A stretch of DNA of 64,000 nucleotides from assembly GCA_964434865.1 (NCBI GenBank), contig CAYSWV010000011.1:14611-78610 (forward strand), given 5' to 3'. A program made the position numbers and the translations under genes. The notes below the pieces were generated by a model that worked only from the letters and a program-made list of their open reading frames with translations, was not told the origin of the DNA and did no database searches. Source of the stretch: an uncultured bacterium (GTDB taxonomy: Bacteria; Cyanobacteriota; Cyanobacteriia; Thermostichales; Thermostichaceae). Shown piece after piece: positions 1 through 9,547 of this stretch. Within the stretch, counting starts at the first letter, position 1, and the number at the start of each line of letters is the position of its first letter.

Positions 1-743
1 TCTGTTTCTGGCACTGACTGACTTGTGATCAAAAGATGGCGAGCAGTACCAATCTTGTACTCTACACAGGTGATATTAGGCATGTAAAAGTTGTCAGCAT
101 GCTCAATCTCAGTTCCAGTTGGGTTGAGAAATCGGTGATACCACCCTAAGTTGTCAGTTTCTTGATGGTATTCCACTCGCACAGATCCATTTTGCCGTCT
201 AATGTGCATGGTTAAGGCTTGCTGTCGCTGGGTTCTGAAGACACCGGGATGCACCGATACAGTATGGGGAATGTCAATAAAGTTTTCAGCACAGTTGGTC
301 ACCGAATTATGAAAACGGTTGATCACGCGAATGGTTTGCCAGCCTGGATGACGGTAATAGGGCATCGCAAAGGGAACGATCTCATCTTCTGGGTCTCGGC
401 AGAGTCGGACATACACATACCCATCTTGCTCACATGTGGGGTACGGCTGTATCTTGCGGTTAGGATCAGCTTTAAACGTTGCACCTTCAGCAGGTACGGA
501 TATAACCTCACCCCGAGCATCATAAACCCACCCATGATAGGGACAGTGGAGACAACCTTGTTGGAGTGATCCCTCCGATAAGCGACTGTTGCGATGCAGG
601 CATCGATCTTGTAAAGCTACAGGCTGTCCATCGGCTCCCCGAAAGATCACTAGCCACTCATTTAAGACTTGACGGGCCACTACCGTTTTAGGTTTGAGTT
701 GTTCGCTTAAAGCCACGACATACCAAAAATCCTCAAATTTCAT
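1..743 (-). CDS. Rieske [2Fe-2S] non-haem iron oxygenase, partial (C-terminus lies beyond the left edge)
   Basis: Minus-strand ORF with ATG at 741-743 that runs off the window, so it is absent from the ORF track. My translation begins MKFEDFWYVVALSEQLKPK. Rieske motif CLHRNSRL...CPYHGW. Mononuclear-iron motif ENFIDIPHTVSVH (D-x2-H-x4-H). It starts 8 nt after the ferredoxin gene stop. Confidence 0.8.
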   Translation of the reverse strand, partial: MKFEDFWYVVALSEQLKPKTVVARQVLNEWLVIFRGADGQPVALQDRCLHRNSRLSEGSLQQGCLHCPYHGWVYDARGEVISVPAEGATFKADPNRKIQPYPTCEQDGYVYVRLCRDPEDEIVPFAMPYYRHPGWQTIRVINRFHNSVTNCAENFIDIPHTVSVHPGVFRTQRQQALTMHIRRQNGSVRVEYHQETDNLGWYHRFLNPTGTEIEHADNFYMPNITCVEYKIGTARHLLITSQSVPET

Positions 744-751
744 ACCTGACC

Positions 752-1039
752 TCACACATCAAGGACTTCAATTTGTAAAGGTCCCTTGGGTTTTAACTGA
801 CAGGCCAATCGGGCTTCAGGTTGATGGGGTGCCAAGACATCAAGGACTTCTTGTTCTAGCGTAGAAGCCGGAGCTGCTTTACCCACCACTCGCACTAGAC
901 AAGTGCCACAGATCCCAGTCCGACACCCAAACAACACAGGAGAATTCTCAGCCGTTAGATAATCAGCAAGGGGATGACCGGGGTGCAGTTGAATTGCAGC
1001 AAACGAGGTATTAGGAAACTGGATCTCAACGCCATTCAC
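752..1039 (-). CDS. 2Fe-2S ferredoxin (plant/adrenodoxin-like cysteine pattern)
   Basis: 95 aa. GCRTGICGTCLV gives C-x4-C-x2-C, with a distal Cys in RLACQL. It is embedded between oxygenase genes and overlaps the upstream gene. Confidence 0.75.
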   Translation of the reverse strand: MNGVEIQFPNTSFAAIQLHPGHPLADYLTAENSPVLFGCRTGICGTCLVRVVGKAAPASTLEQEVLDVLAPHQPEARLACQLKPKGPLQIEVLDV

Positions 1040-2192
1040 GAGCTAAGGCCCTCCGGTGCCGCTTTAGAGTAATCTCAATCGAATTACTAGCCATAATGGC
1101 TATGTCTCGATTGCTAGGCCAAAGATAACCGATCTGATCTAGATACGCTTGGTAAGACGCAACAGCCTCTCGATGTGTGGCAAAACTTAGATGTAAGCCT
1201 TCAGTTTCTTCAGCAAAGCAGGCCCAGATCAGTTGCTTCGCTTCACGGTCATCCAGATTGAAAACAGGTGATCGTAAGACTTTAAAAATAGCAGGAACTA
1301 GAGCTGGATCAAACCAAAAAATACCATTGATGGCAGCAGAAAAATAGTAGTGATCCAACTGGCAGCCTCGGATCCCCAAGTTGGCTATCCAAGTTTCCCA
1401 AGCCGTTGGGGGTTTCAAACACCGTACCACCTCTTGGCCAATCAGCGTTGAACTGGTGAAGTGAAAGCTTTCATCTAAGTAATGGTAGTGTGAAATTTGG
1501 CTGGGAATGGGAGCCTGATCAGATGGACAGTAGCGGCTGAGTTTGTACTGGATCAGTTTGCCATTCAGAGTGCGGAGACCTCGGACCGTGAAGTACTGGC
1601 AAGCTAAATAGGGGTTGTCAGCTGAGATGAGGCCAAAGGCGTGCAGTTGCAACTTTTTCCAGAAGGTTTTCAACTGATTTGTATCAGCAAAGATCATGGT
1701 TTCAGTAAACGGACCTCGCATCGCATACGTGAAGATCCGCTCGCCAAATAAAGCTTGTTCAACTGCTGTAGTGATGGTCTTAAATGCATAGATATGAGAG
1801 CGCTCCTGAGTTGACTCTAGATCTAGCATGTCACAAATCAAACGAAAGTCCTCTAGCGCAAATAAGCCAGCGGCGCTGGTTTGATTAAACAGAATCGTGG
1901 CAATCTCAGCTGAAATAATTTGAGTGTAGTAGGCCACCCAATAAAGCTGATTTAAAATCACCCGTTGATGGACACTGGCCTGATCCCACAGAGGGGTCCC
2001 GTAGAGCAATGAAAACTCCTCAGGGTTCCAGTAGTCATGTTGGCAGTCTTGATAGTTAAACTGAGCCACTAACTGATCTAAGTGATCAGACTGATCTTGC
2101 TGCTGATTGCGAGTGTAGTTAAGTTGCAAGCGACGCAGGAGTTTTTGATCGTCTGCCAGTGGAGATTGAAGTGAAGGTGAAGGTGTCAACAT
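1026..2192 (-). CDS. Diiron-carboxylate oxygenase, AurF/CmlI-like family (tentative)
   Basis: Two ExxH motifs (STQERSH, LDESFHF) plus additional Glu-containing helices. ATG at 2192 (MLTPSPS) is preferred over the track's GTG at 2213 because it sits 2 nt after the upstream stop. Confidence 0.5.
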   Translation of the reverse strand: MLTPSPSLQSPLADDQKLLRRLQLNYTRNQQQDQSDHLDQLVAQFNYQDCQHDYWNPEEFSLLYGTPLWDQASVHQRVILNQLYWVAYYTQIISAEIATILFNQTSAAGLFALEDFRLICDMLDLESTQERSHIYAFKTITTAVEQALFGERIFTYAMRGPFTETMIFADTNQLKTFWKKLQLHAFGLISADNPYLACQYFTVRGLRTLNGKLIQYKLSRYCPSDQAPIPSQISHYHYLDESFHFTSSTLIGQEVVRCLKPPTAWETWIANLGIRGCQLDHYYFSAAINGIFWFDPALVPAIFKVLRSPVFNLDDREAKQLIWACFAEETEGLHLSFATHREAVASYQAYLDQIGYLWPSNRDIAIMASNSIEITLKRHRRALAREWR

Positions 2193-2194
2193 AG

Positions 2195-3127
2195 TTAAGC
2201 GCACATAGCACACTGTTCAGGTGTATAAGGTTGAAAATAGCCTTTAGCTTCAAGGGTTTCCAGGATAGTAGTTGATGGAGTTGCCGCTTTTAAGGCTCGG
2301 GCCAGCAGTCCTCGGAGCATTGCCAATCGAGAACCACTGTGGGCTTCAGTATTCAATTCGGTGAAGATAGTGATCTTATCGGTGGCAGAAAGGTAGCCTT
2401 TAACCTGTTCGAGGGCTGAGACCACTTGTTGAGGACCCACTTGAATCATCCCTAAAAAGCGAGTCAGAACCGCCAACAGTACTGGAGTAGACGCCTCCAA
2501 GTTAGGAAGTGCCTGAAATGAGACTATCCCGGTAGCATGATGTTGAGCTTCGTCAGCTAAAAAGCCTTGATAAATAGCTGCCACATGGGGATCCTGGCAC
2601 GCTTGGGCCAAGCTACGATAGTGACTTAAACCCCACCCTTCCAGCACCACCTGGACTAGCAACAGCAGCACAGCTTTATCATTACAGTCAGCCAGATTAG
2701 CCAAAAATTGCAAAAAAGGAAGCCCAGCCAAGTCAGATTCAGGGGCCTCAACTAAACTCGATATCTGAGCTAAGTGAGTCGCCTCCTGAGCTGAAAACAA
2801 CGCATACAACATCCGCTCTTCAATAGAATGAGCTAACAAGATCATCTTGGCTGTATAGCCGACACCAATTTTCTCAACCCCATACGTCTCAAGCAATAAA
2901 TGATGATTGAGGTGTTGTAAAACAAACTGTTGCTCTGCAGGACTAGCCCTGCGAAAAATCTCGACTTGATCTAAACCATAGAAGTCAGGCTGCCACAAGG
3001 TAGCGAGGGTCTCATGGGGTAAAGGAGCAGGTAAAGACTGAGGTAGAGTCGCGTTTAAAATACGATAGCGTCGATCAGAAGATGGCAGGTGAGGTAGAGC
3101 TAAGCCAGCAATTGTAGATTTAGCCAT
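2195..3127 (-). CDS. Ferritin-like diiron-carboxylate protein (unknown oxygenase/hydroxylase)
   Basis: E...ExxH occurs twice: LLETYGVEK...SAQEATH and VLEGWG...LADEAQHH. Start chosen at MAKSTIAG (ATG 3125-3127), which overlaps the upstream Rieske gene stop by 8 nt. The longer track ORF to 3286 would overlap by 167 nt. Confidence 0.5.
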   Translation of the reverse strand: MAKSTIAGLALPHLPSSDRRYRILNATLPQSLPAPLPHETLATLWQPDFYGLDQVEIFRRASPAEQQFVLQHLNHHLLLETYGVEKIGVGYTAKMILLAHSIEERMLYALFSAQEATHLAQISSLVEAPESDLAGLPFLQFLANLADCNDKAVLLLLVQVVLEGWGLSHYRSLAQACQDPHVAAIYQGFLADEAQHHATGIVSFQALPNLEASTPVLLAVLTRFLGMIQVGPQQVVSALEQVKGYLSATDKITIFTELNTEAHSGSRLAMLRGLLARALKAATPSTTILETLEAKGYFQPYTPEQCAMCA

Positions 3128-4157
3128 GATCAGATGCTCCTGTTTGAATCGGTTGCCATGATCCCCACTCCAGAGCTTGTTGGCGTTCCACATGCTGAAT
3201 AAACTGCAGAATTGACCGGTCAGCCTGAATGGGCGTTTGAAGTGTAAATCGAATGGTTTGAAAAACCTGGGTATCGCCTTTGGCAAAGTACTGCCCCACT
3301 TGTTGAGTCAGACCTAAGATCAAGCGGTTCAAGATCCAGCCTAAAGGACCGGGTCGGCGAGGGGTCAGGGCTAAAGTTTGGCCTTCAGTGCCTCCGTTTT
3401 CAAGCATTTTAAGCGCAAACACTAGATAGAAATGCAAGCGATCGGGGCCTAAGGTCACAGTACCCGTTGTGCCAAAGGAGTAGCTCAGATTGTAAGTAAT
3501 GACATCCTGATATAAAGGCCGCAGCAGCTTCACCAACCAAAACTCATCATCACCGCGAGTGGTGTTATGAAATTGGATAGTGTGTTGATTGATCTCTTGC
3601 TTCTGAAAGCTGATTTGAACCGGCAAATTATGAACAGTATTAAAATGTTGCTCATCAATGGCATTGATCATTAGCACATTAGGATGACATTTTTTCACAA
3701 ACCGGGGGCCTAAGACCACATCAACTTCAACACCCGCTAGTTCAGGTACCACCGGCAGATCAGCAGAGGGATCAGATCCTGTCCAAACCCAGATCAGACC
3801 ATAGTGCTCAACCGTTGGCCAGGTTGCAATCGAAACAGGTAGGGGATCACTTAGGCAAGGAATAGTTTGACAACGACCCGATCGATCAAATTGCCAACCA
3901 TGAAAGAAACACTCGACGCTATCCCCTTTGACTTTACCCTCAGCTAAATGAGCACCCATATGGGGACAATAGGCATCTAGAGTCCCCACTTGTCCAGCTT
4001 GAGTCCGGTAGGTGACTAGCTCTCGCCCCAATAAAGAAACAGCCTTGATCTGACCTGGCCGTAACTCCCGAGCCGGCATGATCCAATACCAGCCCTGGGT
4101 AAAATGTTCAGCTCGATTAAAGAGTAGGGGTTGGTGGCTTGAACCAACGACTTGCAT
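3120..4157 (-). CDS. Rieske [2Fe-2S] non-haem iron oxygenase
   Basis: 345 aa. Rieske motif CPHMGAHL...CFFHGW. Catalytic iron motif NAIDEQHFNTVH (D-x2-H-x4-H). Confidence 0.8.
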   Translation of the reverse strand: MQVVGSSHQPLLFNRAEHFTQGWYWIMPARELRPGQIKAVSLLGRELVTYRTQAGQVGTLDAYCPHMGAHLAEGKVKGDSVECFFHGWQFDRSGRCQTIPCLSDPLPVSIATWPTVEHYGLIWVWTGSDPSADLPVVPELAGVEVDVVLGPRFVKKCHPNVLMINAIDEQHFNTVHNLPVQISFQKQEINQHTIQFHNTTRGDDEFWLVKLLRPLYQDVITYNLSYSFGTTGTVTLGPDRLHFYLVFALKMLENGGTEGQTLALTPRRPGPLGWILNRLILGLTQQVGQYFAKGDTQVFQTIRFTLQTPIQADRSILQFIQHVERQQALEWGSWQPIQTGASDHG

Positions 4158-4174
4158 GGATACGATACCTCTTG

Positions 4175-4924
4175 CTAACTCACCAAACTCAGATTTGATT
4201 CGATAGTAACTTCAAAATGAGGAGCTGTTGACCAGATGCGCTGGCCCGCTCGAGTCAAATTGGCTTCCGAAAATTCAGCTAGACAAACCAATTCATCACC
4301 TTGAGCATGGCTAGGGTTGATCTGCTCGAAAAAGTGAATGTGGGGATCGTGCTGTCGAGTCTCAGGTACACCGGCTAGATGTTCCCGTAAAGCGTGGGGT
4401 TGAGCTAGCCGCACTACGCCATGTTCAGGATCATATAGGGGGCCAAAGCGTTCAATCGCTAGGTGATCCATCAGGGCTTGCATAAAGGGTGGCGTGGGTT
4501 GGTCAAAGCAAGGATAAAAGTGTCGACTAAAGGTTGATAGAAACCGATAGGTGCGAAACCCAGATGAGATTAGAAACCAATAGACTTTTTGTTGGCTAGA
4601 CTGGCGGTGTAGCGAGCGAATGGCTCCAATCCAAGCTTTAGCTAGAATAGGACTTGACCAGGCACTGGGATCTACAATCGTATCCCCTGAAAAGATAATA
4701 TGTAAGGTCTCACCCTGAAATATTGTTGGATAAGATACTAATGTCGAAAATCCTTTTAAGTTTTGTGAAGCTGGATCTCTGAGAATCAATGCATGGCTTT
4801 TTTCAGCTAGATCTCGAGCAAACACAAAGGGATCCACCCCATAAAAATGACGATCAAGTAAATTAAACATCTCTACTCGATCAGACCGAGTCAGTTGGTG
4901 AGTTGAAATACAGTCAACTAGCAT
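4175..4924 (-). CDS. Conserved hypothetical protein, first gene of the oxygenase operon (possibly an acyltransferase-like fold; unverified)
   Basis: 249-aa ORF with no TM segments, sitting 18 nt upstream of the Rieske gene. I could not identify any diagnostic motif. Confidence 0.4.
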   Translation of the reverse strand: MLVDCISTHQLTRSDRVEMFNLLDRHFYGVDPFVFARDLAEKSHALILRDPASQNLKGFSTLVSYPTIFQGETLHIIFSGDTIVDPSAWSSPILAKAWIGAIRSLHRQSSQQKVYWFLISSGFRTYRFLSTFSRHFYPCFDQPTPPFMQALMDHLAIERFGPLYDPEHGVVRLAQPHALREHLAGVPETRQHDPHIHFFEQINPSHAQGDELVCLAEFSEANLTRAGQRIWSTAPHFEVTIESNLSLVS

Positions 4925-5393
4925 GACAAGTTATGTCCCTAACGATACAGGCACGGTTGAGCTTAGATCTGGTAGCGGGAAAACTCAGCTATGAGATCTG
5001 TCTATAGCCACCCAGTTTGCCAGTAGGACTGATGGGATAACAAGGAGAGCCAGTGAGGTCAGCGTAAGATGGAGAAGGAACCTGAAGTAGGGTGAAGCAA
5101 ACGTAGCTAGTGAGATCATCCTCCAACCTGGAGTGGTTAGTCAGTCAGGCGTTGACTTTGAGTTGACTTTGAAATCAAATCTCATGTTCAAGCTAAGCTA
5201 GGTGGGTCCATCCACGCTTAAGAATCTACGCTTAAGAATAGACTACAGGCAGACCCGCTACAGGACATGAGCTTGAGATTTCAACGGTATTAACCGATCT
5301 TAGGTTGCAGAATCAAGGGTTGTTGCTATCTTGATAAGGGTCTAATGACTATGAGTATGGTCTTATGATACTAGGTGCAACCTGGAGTGAGAC

Positions 5394-6398
5394 ATGTTGA
5401 CCTATCGTGACGAGATCCAAGTTTCGATTGTTTTACCGTGTTACAACGAAGCTGATAATCTTGACTACCTGTTTGAACGGCTAAGTCGGGTGTTGGATAG
5501 CTTGCAGTTGAAATATGAAATCGTCTGTGTCAATGATGGCAGTCGGGATGCAACCCTTCCTCGCTTGATCAGTTATCATCATCAAAATCCTGCGATTAAA
5601 GTTGTCAATCTGGCCCGCAATTTTGGCAAAGAGATCGCCCTGACTGCTGGGATCGATTTTTCGCAAGGGGCGGCTGTGATTCCGATTGATGCTGACCTGC
5701 AAGATCCACCTGAGTTAATTCCTGAGATGTTGGCTAAATGGCATGATGGGTATGATGTGGTTTATGCGGTGCGCCGAAGTCGACAGGGAGAAGGATGGAT
5801 TAAGAAGACCACAGCCCTTTTGTTTTATCGTTTAATCTCTCGCTTAAGCCAGGTCCCCATACCGCAAAATACTGGAGATTTTCGGTTAATGGATCGGCAA
5901 GTGGTCAATGCCATTCGCCAAATGCGAGAGCGAACCCGATTTATGAAAGGAATCTTTGCTTGGGTCGGCTATAACCAAACAGCTATTTACTATGATCGGT
6001 CCCCTCGTTATCAGGGCCAGACCAAATGGAACTACTGGAAGCTTTGGAACTTGGCGGTTGAGGGCATCACCTCCTTTAGCTCTTTGCCCCTCCGGATCTG
6101 GAGTTATGTGGGCTTAAGCCTATCAGGATTAGCTTTTTTGTATGGGTGTTTCCTGATTGCTCGTACCCTGATTTATGGCGTCGATGTTCCGGGCTATGCT
6201 TCAGCATTGGTAATTGCCCTGTTTATGGGGGGGATTCAACTCATGAGTCTGGGCATTATTGGCGAGTATATTGGCCGCATTTTTGAAGAAGTGAAAGAAC
6301 GTCCTTTATATTTAGTACGAGATTGCTACGGGTTTGATGATCCGGTCGGTCAAAAACGCTTAGAAGCAGGCCAATGGTATGGCAGGCCTTTGATCTAG
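5394..6398 (+). CDS. GT2 polyprenyl-phosphate glycosyltransferase (GtrB/ArnC/DPM1-like)
   Basis: VSIVLPCYNEADNL, IPIDADLQDPPE, and two C-terminal TM helices. This is the typical architecture. Confidence 0.85.
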   Translation: MLTYRDEIQVSIVLPCYNEADNLDYLFERLSRVLDSLQLKYEIVCVNDGSRDATLPRLISYHHQNPAIKVVNLARNFGKEIALTAGIDFSQGAAVIPIDADLQDPPELIPEMLAKWHDGYDVVYAVRRSRQGEGWIKKTTALLFYRLISRLSQVPIPQNTGDFRLMDRQVVNAIRQMRERTRFMKGIFAWVGYNQTAIYYDRSPRYQGQTKWNYWKLWNLAVEGITSFSSLPLRIWSYVGLSLSGLAFLYGCFLIARTLIYGVDVPGYASALVIALFMGGIQLMSLGIIGEYIGRIFEEVKERPLYLVRDCYGFDDPVGQKRLEAGQWYGRPLI

Positions 6399-6425
6399 CA
6401 ATAACCATCTCTGTCTATTTCAATC

Positions 6426-8324
6426 GTGAGTCCTTGGGGTTATGCACACGTGAGTCAACCACAGAAGCTTTCATTACCTGTTAACTGGCTGATCAGATTG
6501 AGCTTGCTCTTGCTAGGCCTGGCCGTGATCGGTTGGGTCCTTAAACCTATGCTCGAAATCAGCTACCCCATGACCCACTCCACCCAGTTCAATTTAAGCT
6601 GGGGATTTCAGTATCAACGCCAATTTTTCCAAGGCCAGTTTTACCCCAGATGGCTGGAATTTTCAAATTTTGGGTTTGGGAATGCTACTTTTGCTTTTTA
6701 CCCGCCACTATGTATGGTGGCCACACTACCCTTTAAGGCTCTGGGCTTGGGATTGAATGATTCGCTTGTTGCCAGTATGGGTTTAGCCGTGGGATGTTTA
6801 GGTTTGGGCATCTGGCTCTATGCTCGCTGCTTTTTTCCGATAGGGATCGCCGCAGGGGTCGCCGGGCTGGGCATGGTTGGGCCTTATTTTTTGGTGGATG
6901 TCTATCAACGAGGTGCCATAGGTGAAGCTTGGGCTATTGCAGTAGTCCCGTGGATTTGGTGGGGCTCTCAGCTGGTGGTGATCTATCAGCAACGAGTTTG
7001 GCCCATCATGGTTTTAGCCCTTGCCTACGGCCTGTTGGTTCTGTCTCACTTACCTACCCTACTGTTATTTACGTTAGCCTGGATACCCTTTCCCTGGATC
7101 ATGGCTCCATCAGGCTCACGATGGAGTACGGTCCGACGTTGCTATACCGGGGCCGCTTTGGCCTTTGGCTGGACCGCTTTTTTTCTGTGGCCCGCTACCG
7201 TTGATCAAATCTTTGTCCAAATTGGATCGGTTAATGCCCTAACAGAGTATGTTCCTCAAAATCGACTGATGATTCAAGGGCTATTACAACTACAACCCGA
7301 AATCACAACACACTGGTTTGAAACCGATCTAATTGGGCCCTGGTGGGTGATGGTGGGGATCATTGGTATAGGCGGTTTGGTTGTGAGTAGTGTATGGCTC
7401 AAATCCCACTTTTCAAAGATAGCCTTAGATCAAACTCATTATTCACAAGTGCTTCATCAAGCGGCTTTCTACTGGTGTATCACTGGCTTGATCACATTGT
7501 TGATGATGACTGATATTTTAAGCTGGATCTATGCGTTATCGACTACATTGAGGCGGATTCAGTTTTCTTGGCGCTGGATGGGAATCACAACTCTGCTGGT
7601 CCCTCTAATCTGGGGCTATCTCCTCTACATGGCCAGGTTAATGATACCTAAAGGCAACCGTTGGCTCCCTATCAGTATCAGCCTTGTGAGTTTAACGATT
7701 CTCAGTCTGGGGATCACAGGATGGCACGCCACTCAGGTTTTAGATCGAGCCACCTTTAATATTAGAGATATTCAACTATTTGAAGCTCTAGCGGATCAAA
7801 AGCAGTTTCCTTATGAACCCGAACAACGCCCGGGGCGCAGCTTTATTCACTGGCACTGGATCTTTCCTGATGGGCTAGCCTTGGTGGATGTGCCTGAGTA
7901 TCGTGCTGATGGGGTAACCAAGCCAATGCCGCCGCCAACCGTAACGCCTCTGCTGCAGTGGCAGCCTGATTCTGAGTTTCCCCTGGAGATCCTGGCCTGG
8001 GATTTTGGGCGCCGGCGATTTGTGGCAACTAATCCCTCAGACTCTGATCAAAGAGTGGTACTTAGAACCTTTTATTATCCAGCCTGGCGCACCCAACTTG
8101 ATCGGCACTTTCAACCCACAGAAAAGACAGCAGACGGTCAATTAGCCGTAACCATTCCCCCAGGAAAACACGATGTAACCGTAACCTACCTAGGTACACC
8201 CATGGATTGGCTAGGTCGAGTGGGAACAGGGGGAACTCTATTAGGTAGCCTGATTTGGTTACTTGTGACCCAGAAATCATTAGCTAAAAGCACAGTTCAG
8301 ACTAGTGATTCGGGATCCTCATAG
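6426..8324 (+). CDS. Large polytopic membrane protein, GT-C/ArnT-like glycosyltransferase candidate
   Basis: 632 aa with a GTG start. More than 10 hydrophobic segments in the first ~430 aa, followed by a soluble C-terminal domain. YPRW...FAFYPPL motif near the N-terminus. It directly follows the polyprenyl-P sugar synthase gene. Confidence 0.5.
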   Translation: MSPWGYAHVSQPQKLSLPVNWLIRLSLLLLGLAVIGWVLKPMLEISYPMTHSTQFNLSWGFQYQRQFFQGQFYPRWLEFSNFGFGNATFAFYPPLCMVATLPFKALGLGLNDSLVASMGLAVGCLGLGIWLYARCFFPIGIAAGVAGLGMVGPYFLVDVYQRGAIGEAWAIAVVPWIWWGSQLVVIYQQRVWPIMVLALAYGLLVLSHLPTLLLFTLAWIPFPWIMAPSGSRWSTVRRCYTGAALAFGWTAFFLWPATVDQIFVQIGSVNALTEYVPQNRLMIQGLLQLQPEITTHWFETDLIGPWWVMVGIIGIGGLVVSSVWLKSHFSKIALDQTHYSQVLHQAAFYWCITGLITLLMMTDILSWIYALSTTLRRIQFSWRWMGITTLLVPLIWGYLLYMARLMIPKGNRWLPISISLVSLTILSLGITGWHATQVLDRATFNIRDIQLFEALADQKQFPYEPEQRPGRSFIHWHWIFPDGLALVDVPEYRADGVTKPMPPPTVTPLLQWQPDSEFPLEILAWDFGRRRFVATNPSDSDQRVVLRTFYYPAWRTQLDRHFQPTEKTADGQLAVTIPPGKHDVTVTYLGTPMDWLGRVGTGGTLLGSLIWLLVTQKSLAKSTVQTSDSGSS

Positions 8325-8503
8325 CTGTATAATTAAATACAAGTCTTGCGGAAACCTTACTAGATCAGCCCTAGTCTTAGGACAAACGATGCACTATGTC
8401 TTATAGAATAAGGCTTCTAAGTCTAGTCAAGAGTCCGAGGCGTTTAAAGTCTTTAACTGAGCTAGTAGTTTCTAATTCGTTCTGTTTTCCTAGGAGTATC
8501 AAC

Positions 8504-9547
8504 ATGAGTATGACCCGTCGCCAGATAATAATCGCTACCTTATCTTCAATTCTACTCGGCTTGGGTGGAATCTGGGCTGGACACAAGCTACTCTCTAAAC
8601 ACCAGGTAGTGGCCCAAGCTCAAGAGCCTTTATCTGGAACGATGACACTTTATACCTCTGATCCAGATAGTATTATTAACCAAGTAATCAATGATTTTAA
8701 TGAAGTCCATCCTGAAATCAAGGTTAATATTTTTCGTTCAGGTGGAACTGAAGTCGTTTCAAAACTCCAGGCTGAAGCCCAGGCGGGTCAAATTCAAGCT
8801 GATGCCATCATGGTGGCGGATGGGGCTTACATTCAAGAAATGATCGAGAACGATGCGTTGCTGTCTTATCGACCCGAAAACGCAGATAAGGTGCCCGATA
8901 TTTACCACTACGGCGATGATCAGGCTCATGAGGTCCGTCTAACGTTTGTGGTGATTGCTTACAACACGTTACAAGTCCAAACGCCACCTCAAGGATATGC
9001 TAATTTGCTGGATCCCCAGTACCGGGGCCGAATTGCTTCGACTAATCCTTTATTTAACGGTACTGCCTTTTCGCAAATGGGAACTTTTGTTAGTAAGGAT
9101 GAGTTTGGGTGGGATTTCTTTGAGAACCTAGAAGCTAATGATGTGAAATTTGAGCAAGGTAACACCGGCTTAGCGGCTAAGGTTGCTAATGGGGATTATG
9201 CACTAGCTAGTACGGTTGATATTGTTGTTCGATCACTGATCCGGGAAGGATCACCGATTCGGTATGTGTGGCCCCAAGAAGGAACACTGCAGATTCAAAC
9301 GCCTTTTGCCATTTTGAAGGATAGTCCGAATGTAGAGCTTGCTAAAACCTTATTGGATTATCTGTATTCTGATCGAGCTCAGAATCTCTACCTAGATTTG
9401 GGATTTGTATCGCCCCGTGAGGATCTGCCAAAGCCTGATGATGAGGCCTTGGGTGAGATCAATGTCATTCAGGTTGACAATGACTATATTAAATTGAATC
9501 GAGAAGCCTTACGAGAGGGGTTTACACAACGCTTTGGTGGGGCTTAA
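8504..9547 (+). CDS. ABC importer substrate-binding protein (Fe3+/family-1 type)
   Basis: Start chosen at MSMTRRQIIIATL (twin-arginine-like signal). It is the first gene of an SBP-permease-ATPase operon. Confidence 0.7.
   Translation: MSMTRRQIIIATLSSILLGLGGIWAGHKLLSKHQVVAQAQEPLSGTMTLYTSDPDSIINQVINDFNEVHPEIKVNIFRSGGTEVVSKLQAEAQAGQIQADAIMVADGAYIQEMIENDALLSYRPENADKVPDIYHYGDDQAHEVRLTFVVIAYNTLQVQTPPQGYANLLDPQYRGRIASTNPLFNGTAFSQMGTFVSKDEFGWDFFENLEANDVKFEQGNTGLAAKVANGDYALASTVDIVVRSLIREGSPIRYVWPQEGTLQIQTPFAILKDSPNVELAKTLLDYLYSDRAQNLYLDLGFVSPREDLPKPDDEALGEINVIQVDNDYIKLNREALREGFTQRFGGA

Follow-up and report, generated by a model that had tools for sequence, protein, structure and literature searches.

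The 64,000-nt window analysed here (C11:14611-78610, that is, positions 14611-78610 of contig C11 in a 5.14-Mb, 169-contig Thermostichaceae assembly) holds at its left end six genes of an eight-gene operon, the other two lying left of the window. From the encoded families, we assign this gene set to the 'Rieske-containing' class of CylC-homologue clusters catalogued by Eusebio et al. (2021, BMC Genomics 22:633, PMC8406957). Clusters of this class lack a carrier protein and encode 2-4 Rieske proteins together with a single CylC homologue and a protein of the sterol-desaturase family; they make up 36 of 95 CylC-homologue clusters and have been tied to no known natural product (PMC8406957). Our reading of this orphan-class operon, to which as a whole we give a probability of about 0.6, is that a GH3-family ligase and acyltransferases would build a fatty-acyl amide that is then oxidised by ferredoxin-fed iron enzymes. 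The product would most likely be a heavily oxidised, perhaps chlorinated, membrane lipid. Because the cluster type was already catalogued in 2021, the novelty is lower: the window holds another, rearranged instance of a known orphan cluster and is not its discovery.

Operon structure and conserved gene set

Six closely packed minus-strand open reading frames (ORFs) fill positions 1-4924 in the ORF listing, with gene starts taken as in the called proteins P0241 (310 aa, ATG start) and P0001 (388 aa). These genes and their detached partners are listed below, in window coordinates unless a contig (C11 or C25) is given.

4175..4924, minus strand: GNAT-fold protein, putative N-acyltransferase, first gene of the operon; 249 aa, no Pfam model for the family
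3120..4157, minus strand: Rieske oxygenase A, homotrimer type without beta subunit; 345 aa, Pfam Rieske
2195..3127, minus strand: ferritin-like diiron protein of an uncharacterised family; 310 aa, Pfam Ferritin_2
1026..2192, minus strand: CylC-like diiron protein of the Rieske-cluster clade; 388 aa, PF28091
752..1039, minus strand: plant-type [2Fe-2S] ferredoxin; 95 aa, Pfam Fer2
1..755, minus strand: Rieske oxygenase B, N-terminal 251 residues in the window (ORF 3-755), cut by the left window edge
4925..5393, no strand: divergent intergenic region of 469 bp, expected site of the operon promoter
C11:13596-14327: FA_hydroxylase-family membrane protein; 243 aa, PF04116 E 5e-22; 3-nt gap after Rieske B
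C11:12900-13577: membrane hexapeptide acyltransferase; 225 aa, Hexapep 1.4e-6; 18-nt gap after FA_hydroxylase
C11:6478-7977: GH3-family ligase, putatively amide-forming; Pfam GH3 4.8e-29; 4.9 kb past the operon end
C25:54521-55636: third Rieske gene, on another contig; 62% identity with the third Rieske inside the Rivularia cluster

The junctions between the six window genes measure +17, -8, +2, -14 and -4 nt, in agreement with the first-pass annotation, which had put all gaps and overlaps at 18 nt or less. That annotation also named the families correctly but listed only five of the six genes, passing over the 249-aa GNAT-fold gene. Its expectation that the cluster continues past the left edge proved right: leftward extension completes the Rieske B gene (C11:14331-15365, 344 aa) and adds the FA_hydroxylase and hexapeptide acyltransferase genes, after which the operon terminates convergently against an Rsr/Ro60 gene.

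About 36 related loci were fetched and compared by tblastn, of which about 30 hold the same families, mostly in the same order. When all ORFs of 32 loci were clustered without prior assumptions, the only widely recurring families were Rieske, CylC-like (29 loci), GNAT-fold (29), ferritin-like (27), GH3 (24), FA_hydroxylase (23), hexapeptide acyltransferase (22) and ferredoxin (19). The Rieske proteins, of types A and B and in many loci also C, fall into one family by this clustering. The genes usually run GNAT-like, Rieske A, ferritin-like, CylC-like, (Rieske C), ferredoxin, Rieske B, FA_hydroxylase, hexapeptide acyltransferase, GH3, giving a set of nine to ten members with the third Rieske optional. 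No carrier protein, reductase, FAAL-type ligase, transporter or regulator recurs in the 32 loci; likewise, no fatty-acyl-AMP ligase (FAAL), acyl carrier protein (ACP), PP-binding or AMP-binding family is present in this locus or recurs in those.

This locus resembles the Eusebio class in its CylC homologue of the Rieske/PriA clade, FA_hydroxylase, ferritin-like protein and acyltransferases, with neither a FAAL nor a carrier protein next to the CylC homologue, and its gene order is that of the loci in Rivularia PCC 7116, Leptolyngbya, Adonisia and Synechocystis. Two Rieske proteins are encoded in the operon and a third on C25. The class includes a 'PriA-containing' variant in Synechocystis (PMC8406957), in which we confirm that only four cluster genes remain together. 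The main text of the 2021 study describes no substrate-activating enzyme nearby (PMC8406957), a statement that the near-universal GH3 ligase, predicted to adenylate its substrate, qualifies.

Unlike in typical loci of the class, GH3 is split off here and the third Rieske gene lies on another contig. The hexapeptide acyltransferase and GH3 genes adjoin each other in most related loci, whereas in this genome an insertion spanning C11:7974-12903 parts them, with an Rsr/Ro60 gene (TROVE + vWA, plus strand) and a gene for a 941-aa EAD4-NACHT-HEAT protein (minus strand). Because the GH3 start overlaps the NACHT stop codon (ATGATGA, with AAGGAG in front), GH3 may now be expressed together with this defence-type NTPase gene. 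On C25, a 100-N scaffold gap cuts the 5′ end of the third Rieske gene. Its neighbours there are TetR, 286-aa FA_desaturase and SnoaL-like genes (C25:47000-63000, local 5271-9301).

In a whole-genome search, 22 of 151 sampled Cyanobacteriota genomes carry a CylC-like orthologue, 8 of them in the window's own class and 14 in other Cyanobacteriota classes. GH3 accompanies it in 22/22 and GNAT-like in 21/22, mostly within about 10 kb. Outside this phylum, orthologues occur in 6 of 121 Bdellovibrionota genomes, in one Kofleriaceae (myxobacterium) and in one further bacterium. Two Bdellovibrio ORFs of 261 and 528 aa were considered as the GNAT-like and GH3 equivalents and rejected, the true counterparts lying elsewhere in the same locus; the 261-aa ORF is the one unrelated row of the 33 in alignment A1.

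None of six tested carriers from the other classes has a photosystem II reaction-centre gene, though this test is imperfect, as the window genome, positive for PsaA and PsaB, likewise fails it: psbA and psbD homologues were not found there by family search or tblastn. Since these genes are missing despite PsaA and PsaB, an absent reaction-centre match alone is weak evidence. The assembly holds many 100-N scaffold gaps, and the missing psbA and psbD are probably an assembly gap, through loss of multi-copy genes during assembly, and not biology. A non-photosynthetic host was rejected given the presence of PsaA and PsaB.

Oxygenases, ferredoxin and acyl-transfer enzymes

The 388-aa protein and all its relatives belong to the precomputed Pfam family PF28091, CylC-like. 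The first-pass annotation had described it as AurF/CmlI-like while pointing to the cyanobacterial dimetal halogenases; the latter tie holds, but the AurF assignment does not. Pfam AurF (PF11583) scores 19.1 bits against a cut-off of 29.6 (E 7.9e-4), aligning only residues 60-152, and we rejected membership of the AurF/CmlI N-oxygenases on this sub-threshold score, a Gln at the seventh position of the 3-His/4-carboxylate ligand set and the replacement of the second-sphere Asp of AurF by Gln. A sequence search of the PDB gave no match to this protein, AurF included, even at E 10.

Proven dimetal halogenases combine ExxQExxH and HxxDExxH motifs with two further Glu, and all nine residues are essential in NocO (PMC12101540). 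One of these, E252, is no metal ligand yet is needed for chlorination (PMC12101540). The window protein has both motifs (ESTQERSH and HYLDESFH) and keeps the first-helix Glu. At the position of NocO E252 (AurF E196), however, where dimetal halogenases require Glu, it has Gln. We located the position by counting: as in NocO, it lies 30 residues from the Asp of HxxDExxH. Both motifs and this Gln are found in 120/120 closest orthologues, whereas Glu occupies the position in 4/4 comparison proteins, namely two CylC-type proteins checked to lie in FAAL-ACP-polyketide synthase (PKS) contexts and two further paralogues. Gln at this position was noted in 'a small subset' by the Balskus group (PMC12101540). 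It could retain the hydrogen bond without the charge, and because of this exchange chlorination, hydroxylation and desaturation by this clade cannot be told apart from sequence. The window protein is a candidate halogenase.

By a maximum-likelihood tree, the window protein and 28 cluster orthologues form one clade (100/100) on a very long branch, within the Rieske/PriA and not the FAAL-ACP-PKS lineage. The comparison set consisted of four longer or PKS-context CylC-type proteins, two of which, checked directly, lie in FAAL-ACP-PKS contexts; the loci L041 and L042 have the arrangement FAAL-ACP-CylC-PKS. Inside the clade there is a moderately supported split between photosynthetic cyanobacteria on one side and Bdellovibrio with the other classes on the other. 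Compared with the dimetal halogenases CylC, BrtJ and NocO (PMC12101540), the window protein is alike in Pfam family, both motifs, first-helix Glu and ferritin-like diiron fold. It differs in its low identity to CylC-type proteins of FAAL-ACP-PKS contexts (26-33%, against 51-71% to cluster orthologues), its separate long-branch clade, the lack of an insert of ~60 residues, the Gln at the E252 position and the absence of a FAAL or ACP partner.

Two observations concern CylC-like genes elsewhere. Synechocystis-like genomes encode a second, shorter paralogue (about 400-430 aa, 33-34% identical; G113:C1:2830500-2833500, locus L025, and G146:C75) with Glu at the E252 position and without the ~60-residue insert of PKS-context CylC. 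In Kofleriaceae, the CylC-like gene (G152:C17:19352-20495, locus L016) is broken into two frames near residue 260, either as a frameshifted pseudogene or through a sequencing error.

The second diiron protein matches Ferritin_2 just above threshold (25.7 bits against 24.7, E 1.4e-5), and E85, E115, H118, E163, E193 and H196 are invariant in its family. The metal-binding motifs of both diiron proteins are intact, in line with the first-pass annotation. In most loci the genes for these two proteins overlap or lie directly next to each other. Its AlphaFold2 (AF2) model is all-helical (pLDDT 90.1). Foldseek returned generic matches only (aldehyde-deformylating oxygenase, RNR R2, PaaA, acyl-ACP desaturase, AurF; E 5e-3 or weaker), and sequence and profile searches of the PDB gave only marginal MiaE and designed-diiron matches, from which no specific function can be derived.

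Both Rieske oxygenases carry the full motifs claimed for them earlier, as found by regular-expression search: C64-P-H...C-F-F-H and D168-EQ-H-FNTV-H in A, and C52-L-H...C-P-Y-H and D161-IP-H-TVSV-H in B. Pfam Rieske matches A at E 1e-23 and B at 1.6e-24 (window part) or 2.8e-24 (full protein). The CxH...CxxH and DxxHx4H patterns, followed by a C-terminal catalytic domain, are those of homotrimer-type Rieske oxygenases; this domain is recognised as VanA_C in B (1e-8), whereas KshA_C in A stays below its cut-off (16.6 against 23.3 bits). The nearest solved structures to A are KshA (phmmer E 2.6e-27, residues 18-201) and SxtDIOX/SxtT, and those to B are NdmA, DdmC, SxtDIOX and CntA.

The ferredoxin (Fer2 E 2.4e-10) has the ligand pattern Cys39-x4-Cys44-x2-Cys47...Cys80 by regular expression, and the position of its gene, between those for the CylC-like protein and Rieske B, is conserved in related loci. 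No reductase is present in the operon and none recurs in or near the 32 clustered loci, so that the earlier remark on a missing reductase extends to about 30 related loci. Homotrimer three-component Rieske systems (KshAB, DdmABC, NdmA-D, SxtT/GxtA with VanB-type reductases) share the Rieske and mononuclear iron motifs, the lack of a beta subunit and a dedicated [2Fe-2S] ferredoxin. Unlike them, the cluster has no cognate reductase in or near related loci, and its Rieske oxygenases (at most three) share one ferredoxin with two soluble diiron proteins.

The remaining enzymes point to acyl transfer and membranes. The 249-aa GNAT-fold protein has no Pfam or NCBIfam match, and its 1261 homologues are almost all without a name. 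Its AF2 model (pLDDT 88.8) shows a GNAT acyltransferase core with a C-terminal extension, and Foldseek ranks AAC(2')-Ia, Eis, NatD and N-myristoyltransferase highest, at E values down to 4e-6. The FA_hydroxylase has three His boxes (HRLLH, HQVHH, HACHH) and predicted membrane-spanning segments; its best NCBIfam match, far under the cut-off, is the ornithine-lipid hydroxylase OlsE (2e-9). The hexapeptide acyltransferase begins with a hydrophobic stretch of 52 residues, followed by a hexapeptide-repeat (left-handed beta-helix) domain.

The GH3 protein matches the N-terminal (PF03321, 4.8e-29), middle (PF23571, 4.4e-15) and C-terminal (PF23572, 3.6e-7) domains of its family and shares 46% identity with its counterpart in the Rivularia PCC 7116 cluster. 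Its segments TSGSQGPAKWIPYT and GLYRYRMGD align with the corresponding segments of JAR1 and are interpreted as its nucleotide-binding motifs. OlsH, a GH3 enzyme of bacterial origin, converts fatty acids to N-acyl-ornithine (PMC12493201). The OlsH/OlsI ornithine-lipid pathway of Singulisphaera acidiphila (PMC12493201) likewise places a bacterial GH3-family ligase beside acyltransferase and lipid-hydroxylase-type genes. The cluster differs from it in that its GH3 is no OlsH orthologue (NF052613, 31.7 bits against a cut-off of 620), and that no OlsI-type alpha/beta-hydrolase or OlsG is present, with seven oxygenases instead.

An Opitutaceae locus of lipid type (L021), in a genome without a CylC-like gene, couples GNAT-like and GH3 genes by a 4-nt overlap, near FA_desaturase, PAP2 and radical-SAM genes. 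This coupling in the absence of a CylC-like gene suggests that the GNAT-like and GH3 pair builds the scaffold. A Rieske, SnoaL and FA_desaturase group accompanies the pair in L021, and the third Rieske gene on C25 forms such a group with its neighbours. Separately, an Amidohydro_3-family gene adjoins the cluster in four loci (L027 6391-8589, L029 16845-18551, L031 17186-18892 and L032 6418-8613) and may encode a deacylase acting on the product. The L032 copy is fused to an Mpo1-like (2-hydroxy-fatty-acid dioxygenase-like) domain, as probably is the equally long copy in L027.

A proposed route to an oxidised amide lipid and its alternatives

From the gene content, folds, metal motifs, conservation, gene order and clade placement observed above, we infer a pathway whose substrate, order of steps and every reaction are put forward conditionally. 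GH3 would adenylate a carboxylic acid (a fatty acid most likely) and couple it to an amine to form an amide, a step proposed on the precedents of OlsH in bacteria and the GH3 enzymes of plants. Further acyl groups would be attached by the two acyltransferases, GNAT-fold and hexapeptide. The resulting membrane-associated amide lipid could then be modified at several C-H positions, on the chain or the head group, by up to seven O2-activating iron enzymes, itemised as three Rieske, two soluble diiron and one membrane diiron. These modifications would be hydroxylation and desaturation, to which the CylC-like protein might add chlorination. The operon ferredoxin would hand electrons to the Rieske centres and the diiron enzymes, itself drawing them from photosystem I or from a reductase that the host encodes elsewhere. 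Cyanobacterial aldehyde-deformylating oxygenase and the acyl-lipid and acyl-ACP desaturases also take electrons from reduced ferredoxin. Whereas the first-pass annotation had left the substrate as 'aromatic, lipid or pigment-like', the context of two membrane enzymes and three acyl-transfer or ligase enzymes, with no PaO/CAO/Tic55-type domain, favours a lipid. A fatty-acyl chain would also suit the characterised CylC-type enzymes, which work on such chains (PMC12101540). Further hints towards an amide lipid are the coupled GNAT-like and GH3 genes of L021, the amidohydrolase neighbour in four loci and the OlsE match of FA_hydroxylase.

Several points weigh against an oxidised fatty-acyl amide. 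The CylC-like clade has Gln for a Glu essential to chlorination by NocO and lacks a carrier-protein partner. GH3 is only remotely akin to OlsH, so its acid and amine substrates could be others than those of OlsH. The solved Rieske relatives act on steroids, saxitoxin, methylxanthines and aromatic acids, and not on fatty acids. Finally, a literature search up to late 2026 found no characterised product of the cluster from any organism.

The alternatives have low odds, and each fails to account either for the conserved genes of the ligase and acyltransferases or for the pair of membrane enzymes. The best placed of them, though still unlikely, is the tailoring of a polycyclic isoprenoid, with a hopanoid, sterol-like or carotenoid lipid oxidised in place of a fatty-acyl amide. 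The nearest solved relative of Rieske A, KshA, is a 3-ketosteroid 9-alpha-hydroxylase, and the best NCBIfam match of both Rieske proteins is the 4-beta-methylsterol monooxygenase SdmA (E about 1e-20 to 1e-22), albeit at 72-80 bits against a cut-off of 600. FA_hydroxylase is also the 'sterol desaturase' family, which includes carotenoid hydroxylases, and this too counts for an isoprenoid. However, no cyclase, prenyltransferase or carotenoid gene recurs in the 32 loci, and the universal GH3 ligase and two acyltransferases would have no role.

Alternatively, the AurF-like and Rieske (PrnD-like) proteins might turn an amine by oxidation into a hydroxylamine or nitro group, with the GNAT protein acylating it, to give a hydroxamate-type or nitro molecule. 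GNAT acylation of N-hydroxy amines does occur in siderophore pathways, and the weak Pfam AurF similarity (E 7.9e-4) fits such a scheme. We nonetheless consider it quite improbable: the AurF score lies under its gathering cut-off, Gln stands both where AurF has Asp (in ExxQExxH) and at the position of AurF E196, and the two membrane enzymes speak for a lipophilic substrate. The CylC-like gene of Synechocystis 6803 may be sll0266, a mapping that a search with the locus tags sll0263-sll0266 could not confirm. In a single expression-table entry, the sll0266 transcript is ~8-fold down early in iron starvation; if the unconfirmed mapping holds, a response to iron would suit an N-oxygenation pathway, but siderophore genes would be expected to respond to iron loss in the reverse direction.

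There is also a slim chance of a catabolic or detoxifying system, in which demethylase-type Rieske proteins (kin of VanA, DdmC and NdmA) break down a compound of aromatic or quaternary-amine type, which GH3 conjugates. The VanA_C domain of Rieske B and its closest solved structures, NdmA, DdmC and CntA, are in line with this, as is the conjugation of aromatic acids by plant GH3 enzymes. Yet no transporter, regulator, ring-cleavage enzyme or dehydrogenase recurs in the 32 loci, and the keeping of the set in order by photosynthetic cyanobacteria and predatory bacteria alike speaks more for an endogenous product than for a nutrient. The first-pass description taken literally, a redox operon of six genes that is self-contained, is very unlikely indeed and is contradicted by the surroundings: the six genes are tightly spaced, but two more outside the window extend the operon at 3- and 18-nt gaps, the detached GH3 and third Rieske are conserved members elsewhere, and no reductase is present.

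Beyond the oxidised amide lipid as such, we regard as possible, but hold only tentatively, a more specific joint proposal: an undescribed bacterial membrane or signal lipid, consisting of a multiply acylated fatty-acyl amide that is assembled carrier-free by the GH3 ligase and the GNAT-fold and hexapeptide acyltransferases and poly-oxidised, with the Gln-variant CylC-like protein chlorinating the free lipid. If so, chlorination would take place on a free lipid that is not ACP-bound, a kind of substrate of which this halogenase family so far offers no demonstrated case, and the lipid class would be common to photosynthetic cyanobacteria, other Cyanobacteriota classes, Bdellovibrio and myxobacteria. 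The cluster is among the most widely distributed contexts of CylC homologues. Identification of its product would give functions to three families without a characterised member (the 249-aa GNAT-fold, 310-aa ferritin-like and Gln-variant CylC-like proteins) and would reveal whether dimetal halogenases handle free substrates, which is relevant to biocatalysis. The model strain Synechocystis carries the genes, making direct testing possible.

Intergenic region and neighbouring genes

A promoter and terminator consensus scan of C11:6000-19999 found fewer sites than in shuffled sequence. Read on the minus strand, the intergenic stretch 4985-5239 contains two tandem copies of TCAAAGTCAAC at 5151-5172 and two copies of ATTCTTAAGCGT(A/G)GA at about 5211-5239, as well as a 44-codon hydrophobic ORF (5119-4985, minus strand) immediately 3′ of a GGAGG. 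The TCAAAGTCAAC and ATTCTTAAGCGT repeats and the 44-codon ORF could be regulatory sites or chance.

On the other side of this region, the plus strand encodes a GT2 glycosyltransferase followed by a 632-aa multi-pass membrane protein, the latter with no Pfam match (5394-8324). We considered this pair as cluster members and rejected it, as it has no counterpart in the 36 related loci. The 632-aa membrane protein has two paralogues in the same genome, on contigs C100 and C20.

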